A stretch of DNA of 64,000 nucleotides from Candidatus Saccharimonadota bacterium (GTDB lineage: Bacteria > Patescibacteriota > Saccharimonadia > QS-5-54-17): the NCBI GenBank assembly GCA_050486185.1, contig JBJHCT010000001.1, positions 178,866 through 242,865 of the forward strand. The letters run 5' to 3'. Numbering within the stretch: position 1 is the first letter of the stretch; each line of letters opens with the position of its first letter. Positions 5,288 to 44,256 of this stretch are shown in pieces. Under the pieces are notes generated by a model. It worked only from the letters and a program-made list of their open reading frames with translations. It had not been told where the DNA came from and did no database searches. The position numbers and the translations under genes were made by a program.

Positions 5288-6343
5288 ATGCAGGCAACTA
5301 TCGACATTTCTACCAAGGCAATCGTTAGAAGACTACTATTTGTAGTAGCTTTATTGGCTATAGCTACACTAGCTTACAACCTCCAGGGCGTTATTAGGAT
5401 GTTTATCATCGCCTTTTTCATAGCTTTAGTGATGCATGGACCAACCACTAAGCTGCAACAGTACGTTATAGCTCAAAACCGTAAACTAGCTGCCATAGTG
5501 GCCTTTATGTCGATTGGCTTTGTAGTCTCTGTCGTTATAGCCCTAGTAATACCAGTGATATCAAATCAAGCTAGAGAACTAGCCTTGCAAGCTCCGGGAT
5601 ATTTCCATGATCTGTCTAGTGGGGATGGATTTATATCTACTTGGATGCAGAATCTAGATATAGTTGGTAGTTTCCAGGACTTTCTAGCGAGTATTGCTAG
5701 TGGTTTAACTCTATCAGTTGATTTAATTATCGACGTTGCAGCTAGGGTTTTAGATAACATCATAACCTTCCTATTTACTATAGTTTTAGCCTTTCTGATG
5801 GTAGTTGAAGGGCCAAATTGGGCTAAACAGTCGAAGAAGTTCATACCAAAGTCCGCATCCCCTGCTTTAACTGAGTTGATGCCAAAGATGTACAAGGCAG
5901 TTACTGGTTTTGTGGCAGGACAGATTATTGTCACCTCTATAGCGGCTACAGCTACATTGATACTGTTATTTATATTCGGTGTTCCCGCTCCATTGTCTCT
6001 AGCGGCTGTCATATGGGTGACGGGCCTAATCCCACTCATCGGTAATACTCTAGGCGCAGTTATAGTTGTCGCAGTAGCGCTATCACAATCAGTCTTTGTA
6101 GCTATCTTCCTAGGAGTCTACTACATCATCTATCAGCAAATTGAAAACAATGTTTTTGAGCCGATTGTGCAGTCTAGAACAGTCAGTCTAACTCCACTAT
6201 ATGTCATTATCTCAGCCGTTATAGGTGTTTTTGCCGCCGGCTTTATAGGAGCGTTGATCGCTATACCGGTTGGAGCTTGTGTGAAGATTGTAGCTGAACA
6301 CTTCCTAAATGAGAGTTTAGACCCGGATAAATCTAGTACTTAA
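5288..6343 (+). CDS. AI-2E family (PerM-like) transporter, tandem paralog
   Basis: Multi-TM 351-aa protein with YYIIYQQIENNVFEP. Paralogous to the upstream gene. Confidence 0.8.
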   Translation: MQATIDISTKAIVRRLLFVVALLAIATLAYNLQGVIRMFIIAFFIALVMHGPTTKLQQYVIAQNRKLAAIVAFMSIGFVVSVVIALVIPVISNQARELALQAPGYFHDLSSGDGFISTWMQNLDIVGSFQDFLASIASGLTLSVDLIIDVAARVLDNIITFLFTIVLAFLMVVEGPNWAKQSKKFIPKSASPALTELMPKMYKAVTGFVAGQIIVTSIAATATLILLFIFGVPAPLSLAAVIWVTGLIPLIGNTLGAVIVVAVALSQSVFVAIFLGVYYIIYQQIENNVFEPIVQSRTVSLTPLYVIISAVIGVFAAGFIGALIAIPVGACVKIVAEHFLNESLDPDKSST

Positions 6344-7148
6344 TACAGTAAAGTAAAGCGATGTTACGAGGGCGAGCTTCTGTCCCACCGCTATCTGCAG
6401 TATTGCCGGATATGCTATGAGTATGAGACCCATTACTGGTTGTAGACATAGTGCCATTACGGAAATACATTGTTGCATCATCATGTATCCCACCCTGACT
6501 AAAGCGAGGATTACTGCCGTCTTTTACTCTAAGTCCAGCCGTTTCACCAACAGTAGGTACAGTTATAGTTGGGCTAGATCCATTGTTTGCAATCATACGG
6601 ACTTGATTTAGGTAGTTCTGGGTATGTGTATGTGCTCCATCTGAGGCTGCTGTCAGTGATCCTGAATCATGTTGATGCTCTTTATTTTGATCTGCCTGAG
6701 CTGAACCTAAGTCTCTTCCGGTATCTACCCCTCTACCATCATCCCAAGCCCTAAGAAATTCACCCCTTAAGTCAGGTAGGTTAAAAGTAGTCGACCCATC
6801 ACCTACGCCATATTCAGTACCTATAATTGCAAATAAGTCTGCATACTGAGTGCGAGATACTGCCTGACCGTTACATTTCAGCCAGCCGTCAGGTTCTGCG
6901 TTCATAATAAAGCTCATAATAGCTCCTGGAGGAACCGAGGGTGCGCTGCTGCCAGTCACCCAAGTTGAGGTAGCCTCCTCATAGACCAACGTATCTCCAT
7001 CACTAGGACTATTAGCTGCAAGATTACTAATTTGCTCTAAGTTAATATTTCTCAAGCTACCATCTTGATTGTGGGCCACTTCAAGGAACTCATTTAGTAT
7101 GTCTCCCCAGGTACCAATATCTTCGCCTGGTATAGGCAGACGCGCCAT
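6333..7148 (-). CDS. phage tail collar domain protein (tail-fibre-like)
   Basis: TFNLPDLRGEFLRAW collar motif, C-terminal TEARPRNIALLYCIKY, N-terminal PIPGEDIGTWGDILNEFL as in many fibre proteins. Confidence 0.75.
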   Translation of the reverse strand: MARLPIPGEDIGTWGDILNEFLEVAHNQDGSLRNINLEQISNLAANSPSDGDTLVYEEATSTWVTGSSAPSVPPGAIMSFIMNAEPDGWLKCNGQAVSRTQYADLFAIIGTEYGVGDGSTTFNLPDLRGEFLRAWDDGRGVDTGRDLGSAQADQNKEHQHDSGSLTAASDGAHTHTQNYLNQVRMIANNGSSPTITVPTVGETAGLRVKDGSNPRFSQGGIHDDATMYFRNGTMSTTSNGSHTHSISGNTADSGGTEARPRNIALLYCIKY

Positions 7149-21194: not shown

Positions 21195-21851
21195 TTACAT
21201 CATCTTCTCTACTTCACTAACTATCCTTTGATGAACTTCATCAGGACTACCGCCACCATCAATCAGTGGGATATTTAAATCCTCTGCTTCCTGCAAATAA
21301 CCGTTCATAATCCTAACCAGAACTCCTTCATCCATGTTTTCGAAGTAGTCCTTACTTCTGGTAGTATCACTTGATATCCTGCGCCTTCTTTCGCCTTCCT
21401 CTAGGTGGATTATCAACTCTAAGTCTGGAGTGGCGTGTGTAGTAGCTCGTCGGCACTCGTCTCTAACGTATTGTAGGTCTAAACCTTCACCATGACCCTG
21501 ATAGACATGTGATGAGAGTCTATTGCGGTCACAAATTACCCACTTGCCAGCATCAAGCTCTGGAGCTATCACCTGCTTCTGAAGCTCGATTCTAGCAGCA
21601 TTAAATAGATACAAATTAGTCTCTGGTTCTCGCTCTAGTTCGGGGTCTTTGAGTGTGGTTCTAATAGCCTCTCCAATTGGAGTGCCACCGGGCTCCCTAA
21701 TATCAGTTCGAGACTCTATACCTTGAACCGCTAGCCATCCAGCCAGCATCTTGACTTGAGTGGTTTTCCCTACTCCGTCTCGGCCCTCTATGACTAGATA
21801 TTTACCTCGTTCTGGCGGTTTTGCTTGCTGGCTTTCAATAGTTCGATTCAC
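21195..21851 (-). CDS. tmk: dTMP kinase
   Basis: IEGRDGVGKTTQ P-loop and DRNRLSSHVYQG. Confidence 0.85.
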   Translation of the reverse strand: MNRTIESQQAKPPERGKYLVIEGRDGVGKTTQVKMLAGWLAVQGIESRTDIREPGGTPIGEAIRTTLKDPELEREPETNLYLFNAARIELQKQVIAPELDAGKWVICDRNRLSSHVYQGHGEGLDLQYVRDECRRATTHATPDLELIIHLEEGERRRRISSDTTRSKDYFENMDEGVLVRIMNGYLQEAEDLNIPLIDGGGSPDEVHQRIVSEVEKMM

Positions 21852-25499: not shown

Positions 25500-25589
25500 T
25501 CAAATATCCCAGTGACTGTCGAATGGTTCCGGGTTGCCTTGCATCTCGAAAGTTCCCGCGTCGAGGTCACAGACGATAAGCACGGTCAT
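25500..25589 (-). CDS. 29-aa mini-ORF at the end of the high-GC block
   Basis: Hand translation gives MTVLIVCDLDAGTFEMQGNPEPFDSHWDI. The ATG is preceded by TAGGAGGACACC, where TAG is the stop of the upstream gene. Confidence 0.3.
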   Translation of the reverse strand: MTVLIVCDLDAGTFEMQGNPEPFDSHWDI

Positions 25590-25598
25590 GGTGTCCTC

Positions 25599-26459
25599 CT
25601 ACGGCTCGATTGGATAGCGGATGTAGGCGACCCCGCGTCCACCGCGACCCGAAAAGGGACCTGTGTTACCAGCCGCACCGCCGCCACCTGCGCCTGTACC
25701 ATGCGTTCCGGCACCGCCTGTGGGAGACGCATCGCTACCTCCTGCGCCGCCGCCGCCAGCACCACCGGCACCGCCAGCATCACGACCGCCCCCGCCGCCG
25801 CCACCGCCGCGAATGACGCTCGACCCGGTGAAGTCGGATGACTCCCCGGCCCCACCGGCACCACCTGTCGTCCACGTCGGGCCGTTCGCCCCCGCCGCCG
25901 AGGTTCCACCGCCACCGCCGCCCGAGTCGTCAGCCGAGCCGTCGCCACCGTCGTTCCCTTGACCTGATGATCCACTGCCCCCGGTTGAACGAGATGCTCC
26001 ACCGCCTCCTGAACCTCCTGAGCCACCAACCTGCTGCCCCGAACCAAAAGTACCCCCACCACCGCCGCCACCAGTTGCAGTCACACCCGCAAACGTCGTG
26101 TTCGAGCCTGCATTACCTCGCCCACCGCCGGTTACACCGGCACCTTCTGCACCGACCACCACGGGGTAGACGGAAGCCGCGACCGGGACACTGCCCGTGC
26201 GCCGACCACCGGCACCGCCACCGCCACCGCCACGGATACCCGAAGATCCGCCACCAGCGCCGCCTCCAGCGACCAGGTAATACTCGACTTCTTCGTCCGT
26301 ACCCGGATCTAGAACCGTAAAGTTGGCTGACCCCGCCGCCGCGAACGTATGAAGCCTATACTGCCGACCGTCGATGGTGATGGTCGACTCGGTGCCGCCA
26401 GTTGCCGAGACAGAAACCCACACATCAGACGCAATGATCCCGCGACGAAGCAGCCGCAT
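25599..26459 (-). CDS. glycine-rich tail-protein-like protein (high GC)
   Basis: FTVLDPGTDEEVEYYLVAGGGAGGGSSG...GGGGGAGG and long G-rich tracts, as in phage minor-tail or glycine-rich-domain proteins. The ATG at 26459 overlaps the P2 stop (TGATG). The ORF track's alternative start is 26492. Confidence 0.65.
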   Translation of the reverse strand: MRLLRRGIIASDVWVSVSATGGTESTITIDGRQYRLHTFAAAGSANFTVLDPGTDEEVEYYLVAGGGAGGGSSGIRGGGGGGAGGRRTGSVPVAASVYPVVVGAEGAGVTGGGRGNAGSNTTFAGVTATGGGGGGGTFGSGQQVGGSGGSGGGGASRSTGGSGSSGQGNDGGDGSADDSGGGGGGTSAAGANGPTWTTGGAGGAGESSDFTGSSVIRGGGGGGGGRDAGGAGGAGGGGAGGSDASPTGGAGTHGTGAGGGGAAGNTGPFSGRGGRGVAYIRYPIEP

Positions 26460-27007
26460 CAGGTGACCGCCTGTGCGCCGGTCATAACCCACTCGTTCGT
26501 AGCGTGCTTCGTGAGCACCGCCGTGCCGTACCGGTCGAGCGTCCCCGCTAGACGAACCGTAACCCCAGAGCCACCCACGACGGTCACGCCACCTGCACCG
26601 GCCGCATAGACCTCGATCACACTGCCCACCACAAACGCGACCGACGAGTTAGGCGGGACAGTGACAGTCACCGCGGCGGTATTGGTGAACCGCTTGACCG
26701 TCCCCGCGTCGGCCAGGGCGAGTGTGTAGGTCGTGCCCGATTCGTCAGAGAGCGCGACAGACGCGACAGAGTCGCCAATCTGTCCATCTACGTAGCCCTT
26801 GTTGGCGATATCAGCATCATCGACAGGATCGGCTACTTGGGCGCGACCCCACTCGTCATAGACTAGGAGCTTATGCCCACCAGCTGTTGTTCCATCATGT
26901 ACTCTAAGAGTCTTATTAGTAGTATCTACTGTAACTTCTCTATTAACGCCAGTAAAAGCATCGTTCTCTGCTTCGGTTCCACCTCTTAGTTGTACTTGGT
27001 CTGGCAT
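26459..27007 (-). CDS. tail-fibre-like protein, Mtd-N-like N-terminal module (low GC) + high-GC C-terminal domain (paralog P2)
   Basis: MPDQVQLRGGTEAENDAFTGVNREVTVDTTNKTLRVHDGTTAGG. Base composition switches inside the ORF near 26860-26890. Confidence 0.8.
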   Translation of the reverse strand: MPDQVQLRGGTEAENDAFTGVNREVTVDTTNKTLRVHDGTTAGGHKLLVYDEWGRAQVADPVDDADIANKGYVDGQIGDSVASVALSDESGTTYTLALADAGTVKRFTNTAAVTVTVPPNSSVAFVVGSVIEVYAAGAGGVTVVGGSGVTVRLAGTLDRYGTAVLTKHATNEWVMTGAQAVT

Positions 27008-32121: not shown

Positions 32122-32197
32122 TGGCAGGGGTACCAGGATTCGAACCCGGACTACGACTTTTGGAGAGTCGTGTGCTAGCCGTTGACACTATACCCCT
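32122..32197 (-). tRNA. tRNA-Trp (anticodon CCA)
   Basis: Hand-folded: acceptor AGGGGTA/TACCCCT, anticodon arm CGACT-CTCCAAA-AGTCG, T-arm CCGGG-TTCGAAT-CCTGG, encoded CCA. Confidence 0.85.
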
Positions 32198-32903
32198 TCA
32201 ACTCACTAAATTCAGTATAAATCATTTCTAGTAACTTTCCGAGTCTCCTATCTAGGTATCTTATACTAATGCACCCTGGATAGTTGATACGCTTCGTTTT
32301 ACCGGCATGCTTCTTTAAGTAAGGTTTATGGAACTGATTTATTGGTATTTTTGTTACTTGTGACCAATATTCTGTCTGTGTAAGCGCATCATGATAGCTA
32401 TGTAAATGTATTAATGCTCTAAACTTAGATTCATCTAAATCGAAACACTCCCTTAAATAGCCCATGAATATTCTTACCATATTTGGATCAGAGTTAGCGA
32501 ACTGTATTCCTGCCGATATATCCTTACCCCCTTCACACCAAAATAGCATTGAGCATACTAGTTTTTTGTGAGATATATCTAGATTTATGTTTTTAGCAAT
32601 ATTTCTGGCAGATAAAGTAATTTCTTGATCTCTAGCAAGCTTTCTTTCCTTATTTATAGTTGCTAATTTATTGATATTATCTCTTTGTGTATTCCGGATT
32701 TTATGATTAGAAAAGTCTATACCATTTGAACTAAGCTTTATATCTTTAGTCCATGCATAGGCTGTAGACTTGGCAATATCAAGTTCCTGTGCGATTTCTG
32801 AATAGAAAAAACCTTGTTTTCTTAGCGTTACTGCTTCTTTTTTTATTTTCGAACTATAGCTCACTAATAACATAACCTCTTTATATAAGAAATTATACAG
32901 CAC
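32175..32903 (-). CDS. HTH + LAGLIDADG-like (homing-endonuclease-like) protein; 3' end overlaps tRNA-Trp
   Basis: N-terminal HTH (YSEIAQELDIAKSTAYAWTKD). LFWCEGGKD and NSDPNMVRIFMGYL resemble degenerate LAGLIDADG-type domains. The last 23 nt lie inside the tRNA. Confidence 0.4.
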   Translation of the reverse strand: MLYNFLYKEVMLLVSYSSKIKKEAVTLRKQGFFYSEIAQELDIAKSTAYAWTKDIKLSSNGIDFSNHKIRNTQRDNINKLATINKERKLARDQEITLSARNIAKNINLDISHKKLVCSMLFWCEGGKDISAGIQFANSDPNMVRIFMGYLRECFDLDESKFRALIHLHSYHDALTQTEYWSQVTKIPINQFHKPYLKKHAGKTKRINYPGCISIRYLDRRLGKLLEMIYTEFSELKGYSVNG

Positions 32904-34217: not shown

Positions 34218-34628
34218 ATGTCCCTATGTAAGAATTGCAGTACAGGATTAAACAGATTATCTAGTGTTTATTGTTCTAATAAATGCCAGAAAAATTACGA
34301 ATATGCTACGTACATTAAAAAGTGGAAACAAGGTAAAGTTACTGGTAGCAGAGGGGTTGATGCTAAGAATATTTCTAGGCATATTGTTAGATACCTAATC
34401 AGCAAGTATGAAGGTAGATGTGTAGAATGCGGCTGGAACAAGCTTCATCCAGTTACAGGTAACGTTTTACTAGAAGTAGATCATATAGATGGTGACTCGG
34501 ACAATAATCAGGAAGAGAATTTGCAGTTATTGTGTCCAAATTGCCATTCACTTACTAGTACATACAAAAATCTTAATAATGGTATGGGCAGAGAATGGAG
34601 AAGGTCTAAGTATATAAAATCTTCTTAG
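34218..34628 (+). CDS. HNH endonuclease
   Basis: N-terminal Cys-rich region and VDHIDGDSDNNQEENLQLLCPNCHS (H-N-H motif). Confidence 0.8.
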   Translation: MSLCKNCSTGLNRLSSVYCSNKCQKNYEYATYIKKWKQGKVTGSRGVDAKNISRHIVRYLISKYEGRCVECGWNKLHPVTGNVLLEVDHIDGDSDNNQEENLQLLCPNCHSLTSTYKNLNNGMGREWRRSKYIKSS

Positions 34629-41727: not shown

Positions 41728-41949
41728 TTATTTATGTCTATAGGTGATTCTGCCCTTCTCTAGATCGTAAGGTGTCATTTCAACTGTCACCTTGTCCCCG
41801 GGCACAATCTTGATGTAGTGCATTCTCATTTTTCCAGCAATAATGCCTGTTATCTCGTGTCCGTTTTCTAAACGCACACGAAACATTGCGTTTGGCAACG
41901 TTTCTAGAATTGTTCCTTCAAATTCTACAACCTGCTTTTTGCTGGCCAT
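41728..41949 (-). CDS. infA: translation initiation factor IF-1
   Basis: [25 protein letters not shown]...[16 protein letters not shown]. Confidence 0.95.
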
Positions 41950-41980
41950 AAGCTACAAGACTCCATTATAAGTAGTGGAC

Positions 41981-41998
41981 AGGGGTTTGTAAACCCCT
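41981..41998. repeat. 18-nt palindromic motif aggggtttgtaaacccct (copy 1)
   Basis: An identical 18-mer recurs at 59277-59294. It can form a GC-clamped hairpin. It lies 32 nt upstream of the infA ATG, before a tataat and ggag. Confidence 0.7.
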
Positions 41999-42206
41999 AT
42001 TTCACAACTTTTTTTATTTGTATTAATTAGCACTATATCACTAGTGGTAGGGATTTGCAAGGATATTAGTTTTGGATAAGCAAAGAATATGTGCTTAATT
42101 AATATCTGGAAATCTTGGATTTGAATAGTGATTACTCTAACGCAACACTCCTGGATCTCTCGCTAGAAGGAGGGTAATACCGTTATTGTTGGCATTTAAA
42201 CCACCA

Positions 42207-42866
42207 CTACATCTTCTCTGCAACAACAGTAATTACCCGATTCCTAAAAGTACTAGTGGCCGAAGATGTCGCATACTTTGCGGTAAACGTAGTAGTACCG
42301 GGGTTCAGCCCGCTAAGCAAAAACGTTCTGGAAGCCGTACCATGTCCTGACCCGGCCCAGGAATTCCCTATAGCACTACGGCTTTGCGCTGTCAGCCCTC
42401 CCCAAGTATCCCCAGCGGCGTATGTATTTGTTCCAGTCGCTGCAAGGTTCATTGACGTCACAACACCAGCACCCGAACCCCACATAAAGGCACTCAGCGA
42501 TACCAGGACTTTACCAGATGCTGGTACGTCGATTTCAATAGAAGGACCAACAGTGGCTAAATCAGTAAAAGATGTGCTAGTGGTTGACTCTTGTGCTGCT
42601 GTTTCTGAACCCTCGAAGCTTATTCCAGACTCTTCAACCACCCCATCTACATAACTCTTGTTAGCTACATCAGTATTATTGACTGGATCTTCTACTTGCA
42701 GCCTACCCCATTCATCATAAGCTGCTAGTCTACTTCCTCCTGCTGTTTCTCCATCATGTACTCTAAGAGTCTTATTAGTAGTATCTACTGTAACTTCACG
42801 GCTTACTCCAGTGAAGCTATCGTTATCGTTTGCTGTACCACCTCTTAGTTGGACTTGGTCGGGCAT
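42207..42866 (-). CDS. tail-fibre-like protein, Mtd-N-like N-terminal module + unique C-terminal domain (paralog P5)
   Basis: MPDQVQLRGGTANDNDSFTGVSREVTVDTTNKTLRVHDGETAGG. Located between secY and infA. Confidence 0.8.
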   Translation of the reverse strand: MPDQVQLRGGTANDNDSFTGVSREVTVDTTNKTLRVHDGETAGGSRLAAYDEWGRLQVEDPVNNTDVANKSYVDGVVEESGISFEGSETAAQESTTSTSFTDLATVGPSIEIDVPASGKVLVSLSAFMWGSGAGVVTSMNLAATGTNTYAAGDTWGGLTAQSRSAIGNSWAGSGHGTASRTFLLSGLNPGTTTFTAKYATSSATSTFRNRVITVVAEKM

Positions 42867-42912
42867 GGTGTTAGTTACTCTTTCTAAATCCTTATGGATT
42901 ACTGTTGTCTTT

Positions 42913-42942
42913 ATATTAGGTTAGTAGAGTAGGTTTAGTCAA
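42913..42942 (-). promoter_or_regulatory. putative sigma70-type promoter of P5
   Basis: Minus strand reads TTGACT (42942-42937) - 18 nt - TAATAT (42918-42913). It begins 6 nt after the secY stop. Confidence 0.35.
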
Positions 42943-42948
42943 CGCTAT

Positions 42949-44256
42949 CTACTTATAACTAGCGTTAATAATCTGTGAGTCGATTTGGCGCAAGCTTTCG
43001 ATACTAACACTGACTACAATCAATAGCCCTGTACCACCAAAGGTTAGAGCTTGTGATCCGGTGATGTATTCACCTATAAAGGGCAGTACAGCTATAAAGC
43101 CTAGGGAGATAGCTCCAAAGAGAGTAATCCTATTAACGATCTTCCTTAGATACTCCTCTGTTTGTTTACCGGGCCTAATACCGGGTATAAAGCCGCCTTG
43201 TTTTTGCAAGTTCTCAGCAATGTCGACTGGATTGAAGACTATACCGGTATAGAAGTAAGTAAAAGCTACTACTAAGCCAAAGTAGGTGAAAGCATAGATC
43301 ATATTGGATGGATCAAACCATACAGTTAAGTTAGTAGCTAGTGTTGCTAGCCAAGCTGCATCGGCATTAGCTAGAATCTGACCGATAAAGGCCGGTAAGG
43401 ACAGGAAGGCTACTGCAAATATGATTGGGATTACACCGGCCGTTAGAATACGGATAGGAAGCTCTGATTCCACCCCGCCATAGCCGCTGTTTTGCATCCG
43501 CTTAGCATAGGAGACTTTAACGATTCTCCTAGCCTCATTGAGCTTAACGATATAGTAAGTGATGATGAGCGAGGCGATTACAAAGAAGCCGACCTGCAGA
43601 ATTTCAGTAGTTGAGGCTTGAACTATCGAAACAGCCTGACCGAAGACACCTGGCAATTGAGCGATGATAGAGGCGGCAATCAATATAGATATACCATTAC
43701 CTACACCCTTCTCACTAATTAACTCACCCATCCACATCAGTAGCATCGAACCGGCCACCATAACTGTAATCATCAACACCCACTCATAGGCACTAGGATT
43801 ACCAATAATATCGGTCTGGCCCACCTGGATAGCTAATTGTCTAATAAAGAAGACGGTACCGATAGATTGGCCGATAGCTAATGGCAAGGTTAGATACCGA
43901 GTATATTGATTGATCTTGCGTCTACCCTCTTCACCCTCTTTTTTCAACTCCGAGAACTTTGGCACCACCTGGGTAAGTATCTGCATGATAATTGAGGCAT
44001 TAATATATGGGCCTAGACCCATTAGAGCAATCGAGAAGTTCGCTACCGCACCACCGGAAAATAGATCAACTAAGCCAAATAGACGATTGCTAGATAGTAG
44101 ATCAGTTAAAAAGTTACTTAAAGTCGCACTATCGGCAAAAGGAATAGGTACATGGGCCATAATCCTGTAGATTAATACCATAAAAAAGACCGCTAGGATT
44201 TTGTTACGTAAATCCTTATTGGTTAAAACGGATTTGAGTATCCTGTTGCCCTCCAT
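42949..44256 (-). CDS. secY: preprotein translocase subunit SecY
   Basis: 435 aa with 10 TM helices. GLGPYINASIIMQIL and conserved operon position. Confidence 0.95.
   Translation of the reverse strand: MEGNRILKSVLTNKDLRNKILAVFFMVLIYRIMAHVPIPFADSATLSNFLTDLLSSNRLFGLVDLFSGGAVANFSIALMGLGPYINASIIMQILTQVVPKFSELKKEGEEGRRKINQYTRYLTLPLAIGQSIGTVFFIRQLAIQVGQTDIIGNPSAYEWVLMITVMVAGSMLLMWMGELISEKGVGNGISILIAASIIAQLPGVFGQAVSIVQASTTEILQVGFFVIASLIITYYIVKLNEARRIVKVSYAKRMQNSGYGGVESELPIRILTAGVIPIIFAVAFLSLPAFIGQILANADAAWLATLATNLTVWFDPSNMIYAFTYFGLVVAFTYFYTGIVFNPVDIAENLQKQGGFIPGIRPGKQTEEYLRKIVNRITLFGAISLGFIAVLPFIGEYITGSQALTFGGTGLLIVVSVSIESLRQIDSQIINASYK

Follow-up and report, generated by a model that had tools for sequence, protein, structure and literature searches.

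In many bacteria, Bacillus among them, the genes adk and map stand between secY and infA, in the order secY-adk-map-infA. The 64-kb window of a Saccharibacteria genome analysed here (the window being the whole stretch of DNA under study; genome GC content 42%) keeps secY and infA, and the 999 nucleotides (nt) between them (41950-42948) hold one substantial open reading frame (ORF), P5, separated from secY by 82 nt and from infA by 257 nt. This raises the question of what P5 is, how it came to lie there, and whether its arrival was connected with the missing adk and map. A sequence-only reading of this DNA had proposed that P5, as a member of a gene family and together with its own promoter and an 18-nt palindrome, occupies the place where adk and map normally sit; the positions that it gave for secY, P5 and infA agree with the ORF list and the sequence. 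The explanation that we favour, with somewhat better than even confidence, is that P5 is a recent, lineage-specific and phage-derived gene for a modular fibre, inserted between two transcription units, whose product would be a domesticated trimeric fibre directed at actinobacterial hosts.

We began with the missing genes. Neither adk nor map is present anywhere in the window, as the sequence-only reading had stated: tblastn with Adk and Map of E. coli gave chance-level matches only (best E values 0.12 and 1.7), the Adk P-loop signature was absent from all six frames, and Pfam scans of about 50 non-ribosomal ORFs of the window returned neither ADK nor Peptidase_M24, the sole nucleoside-monophosphate kinase among the scanned ORFs being a thymidylate kinase (21195-21851). 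A search with SecY collected 80 loci, nearly all labelled Saccharibacteria or Saccharimonadales, and in all 80 the positions of secY, infA, rpmJ, rpsM, adk and map were determined. Both secY and infA were found in 68 loci and lie 76-278 nt apart in 46 of these, and a match to adk or map within 10 kb of secY was seen in none of the 80. A similar layout is listed for the cultivated Saccharibacterium Southlakia epibionticum ML1 in Table S1 of PMC10633639, where the genes for IF-1 (SEML1_0452) and SecY (SEML1_0453) are neighbours 117 nt apart. In the same table an adenylate-kinase-family gene (SEML1_0172, PF00406) adjoins map (SEML1_0173), and this pair lies about 260 kb from secY, just upstream of ftsA and ftsZ. 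Since the window itself carries no FtsZ signature, the absence of an adk-map pair from it is unsurprising.

The absence of adk and map after secY is old, clade-wide and unrelated to P5, and because the secY-infA spacer lacks both genes across the clade, P5 displaced nothing. The idea that P5 replaced adk and map, its insertion being tied to the loss or relocation of two essential genes, draws on the order found in many bacteria and on a window without either gene, but we regard it as extremely improbable: the relocation is older than P5 by the full depth of the clade, and a causal link between the insertion and the loss was rejected on clade synteny. What survives of the original proposal is an extra gene with its own promoter-like element in the secY-infA spacer, while its premise about adk and map fails for Saccharibacteria. 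The synteny point is therefore a minor one, largely explained and ordinary for this group.

Comparison of synteny with related genomes, which the sequence-only reading had put forward as a check, indicates when P5 arrived. The SecY of the window is 93% identical to that of the Saccharimonadales metagenome-assembled genome JBBDOS and 86% to that of SLRF01000045; by locus, identity is highest for L006 (93%), followed by L001 (86%) and L002-L005 (72-75%). None of these six loci shares the P5 arrangement, and identical P5 orthologues, which had been named as the mark of an ancient fixed arrangement, do not occur in the gap of these close relatives. L001-L005 have no insert, their secY-infA spacers measuring 101-161 nt. 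In L006, the closest relative, the gap measures 1.4 kb and holds a 225-aa (amino acid) fibre-like ORF on the opposite strand, which has weak matches to phage tail families and only the short motif GRLQVADPV..D..N.GYVD in common with P5. The nearest full-length P5-type protein of the L006 genome, P0004 (43% identity), is encoded on another contig beside a sortase gene, and a further homologue, P0003 (48% identity), lies in yet another context. The syntenic sites of L001 and L006 also lack P3 and P4, two paralogues of P5 in the window. By blastn, only the infA-proximal 100 nt or so of the gap align with the gaps of L006 and L001, and roughly the distal 150 nt of the P5-infA spacer are unique to this genome. 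The insertion of P5 into the secY-infA spacer is recent and specific to this lineage. The gap contains no recombinase gene, and terminal repeats, a target-site duplication and a transposase or integrase, the features by which a mobile element would be recognised, were not found there.

The inserted gene brought its own upstream region. The secY stop codon TAG is followed by ATAGCG and then by TTGACT-18 nt-TAATAT, so that a promoter-like site does begin 6 nt past the stop, as had been noticed from the letters and as a consensus scan confirmed. P2, another paralogue of the window, shares with P5 about 75 nt upstream of the ATG, comprising the promoter-like hexamers and the leader (alignment and blastn), and it is this conservation, not the consensus match alone, that supports the P5 promoter. 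A promoter-like site and a Shine-Dalgarno-like sequence are present at each paralogue copy. The promoter-like element and leader, being common to P2, accordingly travelled with the gene.

The palindrome has a different history. It is present as an imperfect, 8+2+8 inverted repeat, and the part of the sequence-only reading that assigned it to the P5 unit does not hold, given that the -35 hexamer of a conserved infA promoter lies at its centre; the match to this promoter ends 15 nt before the infA start. Among 45 sequences inspected, 41, including L001-L006, have an infA promoter matching the consensus at 10 or more of 12 positions, mostly 14-21 nt from the ATG. GGGGTTTACA is common to the window, L001, L003, L005 and L006, L002 and L004 carry GGGTTTACA, and the right arm of the repeat, AAACCC(C), was seen in the window and L006 only. 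Because the infA promoter is conserved in relatives without P5, the inverted repeat is part of the infA promoter region and predates P5; as a terminator of P5 or the end of a cassette it was rejected.

With a promoter of its own in front of infA, the secY-infA spacer marks where one transcription unit ends and another begins, and this probably explains why it accepts insertions. No terminator-like site was detected between secY and P5 or between P5 and infA; the 257-nt spacer between P5 and infA (41950-42206, minus strand) folds at -58.9 kcal/mol (z = -3.05), and none of 200 shuffles was as good. P5 has company at this position, since 22 of the 68 loci hold 0.5-3.9 kb of cargo in the spacer (L006, L020, L023, L028, L030-L032, L035, L036, L038, L041, L043, L045, L046, L053, L055, L057, L060, L061, L066, L072, L080). 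The cargo is unrelated between lineages and comprises a 3.8-kb unit of a CopY-like regulator and a copper ATPase in one group, sortase-like genes at two loci, and assorted hypothetical proteins. The secY-infA spacer appears to be a recurrent insertion site for accessory genes.

Both modules of the P5 protein are of phage ancestry, as judged by homology. The N-terminal module contains an Mtd_N domain (PF18454, E 2.7e-10, above the gathering score), and residues 3-51 of P5 align residue for residue with residues 3-51 of Mtd of the Bordetella phage BPP-1 (1YU0, E 4e-9). The C-terminal tip is predicted to be a TNF/C1q-like jelly roll; the likenesses listed for this part are Bacillus exosporium ExsFA, BclA and several phage fibre heads. 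A Foldseek comparison of the tip with viral models (BFVD) returned mostly tailed-phage proteins, the named hosts among the matches being those of Actinoplanes, Streptomyces, Arthrobacter and Propionibacterium phages. At the sequence level, residues 90-214 match the extreme C-terminus of phrog_7565, a phage minor tail family with an 882-position profile (E 1.9e-25), and the tip matched 103 phage records, 85 of them Mycobacterium phages, with 36-44% identity among the matches listed.

The closest relative of the tip is P0002, with 74% identity over 151 residues and 70% nucleotide identity, whose gene immediately follows the portal gene in phage contigs from SRR29149963, SRR29149960 and SRR29149942. 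Over its full length, the portal of this uncultured phage shares 47-48% identity with those of large Streptomyces phages, and the gene order of the phage is also theirs: ribonucleotide reductase, endolysin, portal, a variable gene (P0002), protease and capsid. Its endolysin has matches among the endolysins of Streptomyces, Mycobacterium and Gordonia phages. An actinobacterial host would fit this phage, on the strength of similarity to Streptomyces phages only. Elsewhere in the window, a 271-aa ORF (6333-7148, minus strand) carries a Phage Tail Collar domain (PF07484, E 1e-26) and matches many tail-fibre PHROGs. The C-terminal part of this ORF shares 49% identity with the Collar fibre of L084, the phage contig in which P0002 is encoded.

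P5 is indeed one of a family. Searching the window with tblastn recovered five loci that have the first 75 or so residues in common and then diverge completely, with 50 invariant N-terminal positions in the alignment. DNA identity between the paralogues is limited to the first 210-240 nt of coding sequence, and a common 3' end was looked for and not found. All paralogue N-modules match Pfam Mtd_N (E 1e-10 to 1e-13). A database search returned nine family proteins whose only recorded contig is one of 264,553 bp, exact copies of P5 and P2 among them. Across the N-module the ratio of nonsynonymous to synonymous substitution (dN/dS) is 0.17-0.79 overall and 0.17-0.33 for most pairs, at dS of 0.14-1.0. 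The N-module is thus under purifying selection, which argues that the family consists of working genes rather than decaying copies. A 322-aa member with Mtd_N and a glycine-rich domain also lies co-directionally between ftsI and mraY of a close relative (L090, JBBDUB010000005.1, 6001-6969), with a second family member 5 kb away. Given the positions of P1 after rplL, P2 before secE-nusG and the relative's copy between ftsI and mraY, junctions of housekeeping operons are a recurring location of the family.

The N-modules of P3 and P4 (33270-35587) form a 229-nt inverted repeat of 91% identity around a 975-nt segment that contains tRNA-Thr(ggt), an HNH endonuclease gene (34218-34628), tRNA-Thr(tgt) and tRNA-Tyr. 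In L001 these tRNAs and the HNH gene are arranged in another order, and P3 and P4 are missing; the segment could be invertible. Just downstream of P3 a 242-aa ORF (32175-32903, minus strand) has weak matches to HTH_23, HTH_Tnp_1 and Terminase_5, of the transposase or terminase-small-subunit type; it may be a trace of mobile DNA.

How tips are acquired is suggested by P2. Past its N-module the GC content of this gene jumps from 0.47 to 0.66, and that at third codon positions (GC3) from 0.32 to 0.76. The jump marks the start, inside P2, of a high-GC island of about 1.3 kb (25500-26830, 60-67% GC against 42% for the genome), which runs on through a Gly_rich_2 (PF21722) gene (25599-26492) and a 29-aa ORF. 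Minor tail proteins that match the P2 tip were found in 18 Gordonia phages, and the best non-self homologue of this tip has only 64% identity; tblastn of the PF21722 gene against phages gave no match, perhaps through low-complexity masking. In P2, foreign high-GC DNA of phage type therefore seems to have been joined in frame, and recently, to a resident N-module. Given that the tip of P5 has a GC3 of 0.40, as in housekeeping genes, and 70% nucleotide identity to the phage gene, its capture would be older than that of P2.

These data allow us to propose how P5 works. Two units flank the insertion, the spc-type operon ending in secY and infA-rpmJ-rpsM with its own promoter. P5 would be transcribed from its own promoter and by read-through from secY, the latter suggested by the lack of a terminator-like site between the two genes. 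By analogy with Mtd and TNF-like lectins its product would form a trimeric fibre, in which the common N-module may dock to a shared cell structure or partner and the exchangeable tip may bind a surface glycan of an actinobacterial host. Cultivated Saccharibacteria are described as growing on Actinobacteria (PMC10633639), and glycan binding on such hosts is suggested by this lifestyle together with tips that derive from phages of Actinobacteria. New tips would be gained by recombination just after the conserved N-module, of which P2 may be a fresh example.

Several observations weigh against a host-directed fibre. The P5 sequence shows neither a signal peptide nor a lipobox, a transmembrane segment or a sortase motif, so that a route to the surface is not evident, and at 219 aa the protein is very short and lacks the long stalk of known fibres. 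The consensus match of its promoter is in itself no better than chance (3 promoter-like matches observed in the region, 3.0 in shuffled sequence), and direct or inverted repeats flanking P5 are short and at chance level, leaving the insertion with no signature of mobility. Were the phage that carries P0002 to infect Saccharibacteria, the tip would target the bacterium's own surface. The supplementary tables for the cultivated model S. epibionticum contain no entry for Mtd_N, Collar or Gly_rich_2, from which it follows that the family is not a general requirement of the epibiotic lifestyle.

Four other readings compete with a domesticated fibre. P5 and its paralogues could be inert debris, left by prophages or acquired by competence and without cellular function. 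Two modules of phage origin, the missing export signal, the unameliorated foreign DNA in P2 and insertion sites that differ between close relatives would all suit such a history; we nevertheless judge it unlikely, as the window has five intact copies and a single contig is listed with nine such proteins, purifying selection holds the N-module at a dN/dS of about 0.2 even at dS up to 1.0, each copy has its promoter-like and Shine-Dalgarno-like sites, and the codon composition of the P5 tip is host-like. Other phage structural genes are not found nearby, and so many functionless genes would be unexpected in a small genome. The paralogues could also be alternative fibres for a phage-like particle, such as a tailocin, a gene transfer agent or a resident prophage, encoded elsewhere in the genome. 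Phages fit different fibres to one baseplate in just this way, by joining interchangeable tips to a common N-module; an export signal is missing, and a Collar-domain fibre gene and the Gly_rich_2 gene share the window. Against this, ORF scans of the 64 kb found no baseplate, sheath, tube, capsid or terminase genes, and portal and tape-measure genes are equally absent from the window, so that P5 is not part of a phage or prophage structural module; the family genes stand one by one among housekeeping operons and do not form a cluster. We hold this possibility to be quite improbable.

An intracellular role in defence would fit the lack of a signal peptide. In this case the tips would bind the bacterium's own surface receptors, through superinfection exclusion or as decoys, or the N-module would poison the assembly of Mtd-type phages. 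The homology to receptor-binding proteins and the shared N-module, which in phages docks the fibre to the tail, lend themselves to this idea, and the P5 tip and the Collar ORF both having homologues in one phage contig points to gene flow. That phage, however, groups with Streptomyces phages in portal, endolysin and gene order, its own Mtd_N protein differs from P5 in N-terminal sequence, and the tips of P5 and P2 match tail proteins of Mycobacterium and Gordonia phages, which are phages of the host phylum and not of Saccharibacteria. An anti-phage or self-recognition function is accordingly one that we doubt. Least compatible with the evidence is a role for P5 as the variable protein of a diversity-generating retroelement, as Mtd is in BPP-1. 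Such retroelements are common in bacteria of the candidate phyla radiation, and the N-terminal domain is homologous to that of Mtd; two proteins from the same 264,553-bp contig, P0034 and P0035, moreover combine Mtd_N with a weak match to the FGE-sulfatase (C-type-lectin-fold) family. The P5 tip is a TNF/C1q-like jelly roll by prediction and not a C-type lectin fold, a second copy of the tip DNA that could serve as template is absent from the 64-kb window, and among the window ORFs scanned none has a reverse transcriptase domain. For these reasons P5 was rejected as a retroelement target, a role to which we give almost no credence. P0034 and P0035 themselves, of 364-367 aa and encoded outside the window, are possible true Mtd-like targets of such an element.

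Of these readings we retain the domesticated fibre, and with it the proteins of the P5 family become plausible candidates for host recognition and determinants of host range. A wider and more tentative suggestion, which may be right but which we would not expect to hold in full, is that this environmental Saccharibacteria lineage keeps an expanding set of mini-fibres with a common Mtd-type docking module, their tips captured from phages of the actinobacterial hosts, and that these genes, each with its own promoter, are seeded where housekeeping operons have their junctions: between secY and infA, after rplL, before secE-nusG and, in a relative, between ftsI and mraY. If the capture of tips is as we suppose, a parasite would be borrowing the host-recognition hardware of its host's viruses, and P2 would be a capture caught in the act. 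The tips might then help to predict the hosts of uncultured Saccharibacteria by sequence. The features on which the analysis rests are collected in Table 1.

Table 1. Features of the secY-infA region and paralogues of P5, in window coordinates.
Feature	Position	Strand	Remarks
secY	42949-44256	-	435-aa ORF; last gene of the spc-type ribosomal operon
P5 promoter-like element TTGACT-18 nt-TAATAT	42942-42913	-	consensus scan 9/12
P5 5' leader	42867-42912	-	common to paralogue P2 (alignment; blastn)
P5	42207-42866	-	219 aa; sole substantial ORF of the gap
P5 N-module, codons 1-77 (Mtd_N domain and motif GRLQVEDPVNNTDVANKSYVDG)	42636-42866	-	
P5 tip domain, residues ~80-219 (predicted TNF/C1q-like jelly roll)	42210-42629	-	
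Spacer, P5 to infA promoter	41999-42206	-	
infA promoter TTTACA-17-TATAAT	41965-41998	-	11/12 match
8+2+8 inverted repeat AGGGGTTT-AC-AAACCCCT	41981-41998	-	centred on the -35 box of the infA promoter
infA (IF-1)	41728-41949	-	73-aa ORF; 85-96% identity in L001-L006
Paralogue P1	15828-16424	-	immediately downstream of rplJ-rplL
Paralogue P2	26459-27007	-	apparent chimera of native N-module and high-GC tip; precedes secE-nusG
Paralogue P3	33270-33932	-	
Paralogue P4	34907-35587	+	divergent from P3 across the tRNA/HNH segment

The genes that follow infA on the minus strand are rpmJ, rpsM, rpsK, rpsD, rpoA and rplQ. Two ribosomal proteins of the window have unusual ends: L17 (38708-39238) carries a C-terminal tail of about 55 residues rich in Lys, Thr and Ala, and L1 (22811-23770), of 319 aa, has its Pfam match from residue 123 and thus a long N-terminal extension.

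Compared with the canonical spc/alpha region of Bacillus subtilis, the locus has the same flanks, rplO-secY on one side and infA-rpmJ-rpsM-rpsK-rpsD-rpoA-rplQ on the other, whereas adk is missing just 3' of secY and map before infA, and infA has its own conserved promoter. The protein has relatives in two kinds of phage protein. In Mtd the Mtd_N segment forms the N-terminal end of a trimeric receptor-binding protein, and the first 50 or so residues of BPP-1 Mtd (PDB 1YU0) are homologous to the P5 N-module; Mtd then continues into a beta-sandwich and a C-type-lectin variable domain diversified by the retroelement, whereas P5 continues into its TNF/C1q-like tip. The minor tail proteins of actinophages (phrog_7565; Mycobacterium phages Cuke, Angel, Herbertwm and others) have a tip domain homologous to that of P5, but they are encoded in virion gene modules and are usually far longer, whereas P5 is a solitary cellular gene with another N-module.

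Within the literature searched, no earlier account of proteins resembling tail fibres, Mtd or TNF came to light for Saccharibacteria or Patescibacteria. Host identification and binding by ultrasmall epibiotic bacteria are described as largely unknown, with type IV pili as the main known factor (PMC11623550). The nearest parallel comes from the predator Bdellovibrio bacteriovorus, whose mosaic adhesive trimer (MAT) fibres combine an invariant N-domain with swapped tips, TNF-like ones included, and are displayed on the cell surface, where one member binds glycans (Caulton et al. 2024, PMC10769870). Like them, the P5 proteins form a multigene family in which the N-terminal domain is invariant and the C-terminal tips vary. 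The two differ in build, since MAT proteins have about 600-1,100 aa and long intertwined beta-prism stalks, whereas members of the P5 family have 182-243 aa and almost no stalk, P5 itself being four to five times shorter than MAT with only about 30 residues between N-module and tip. The N-domain of MAT has no homologue in the PDB, and that of P5 is the unrelated Mtd_N. MAT fibres have been shown on the surface and serve against Gram-negative prey, whereas the suspected target of the P5 family is Actinobacteria. On this comparison P5 is not a member of the MAT family, which is its closest functional precedent; if the tips do come from phages of the host phylum, P5 and its paralogues would be a second independent case, after the MAT fibres of Bdellovibrio, of a parasite or predator reusing the receptor-binding architecture of phages.

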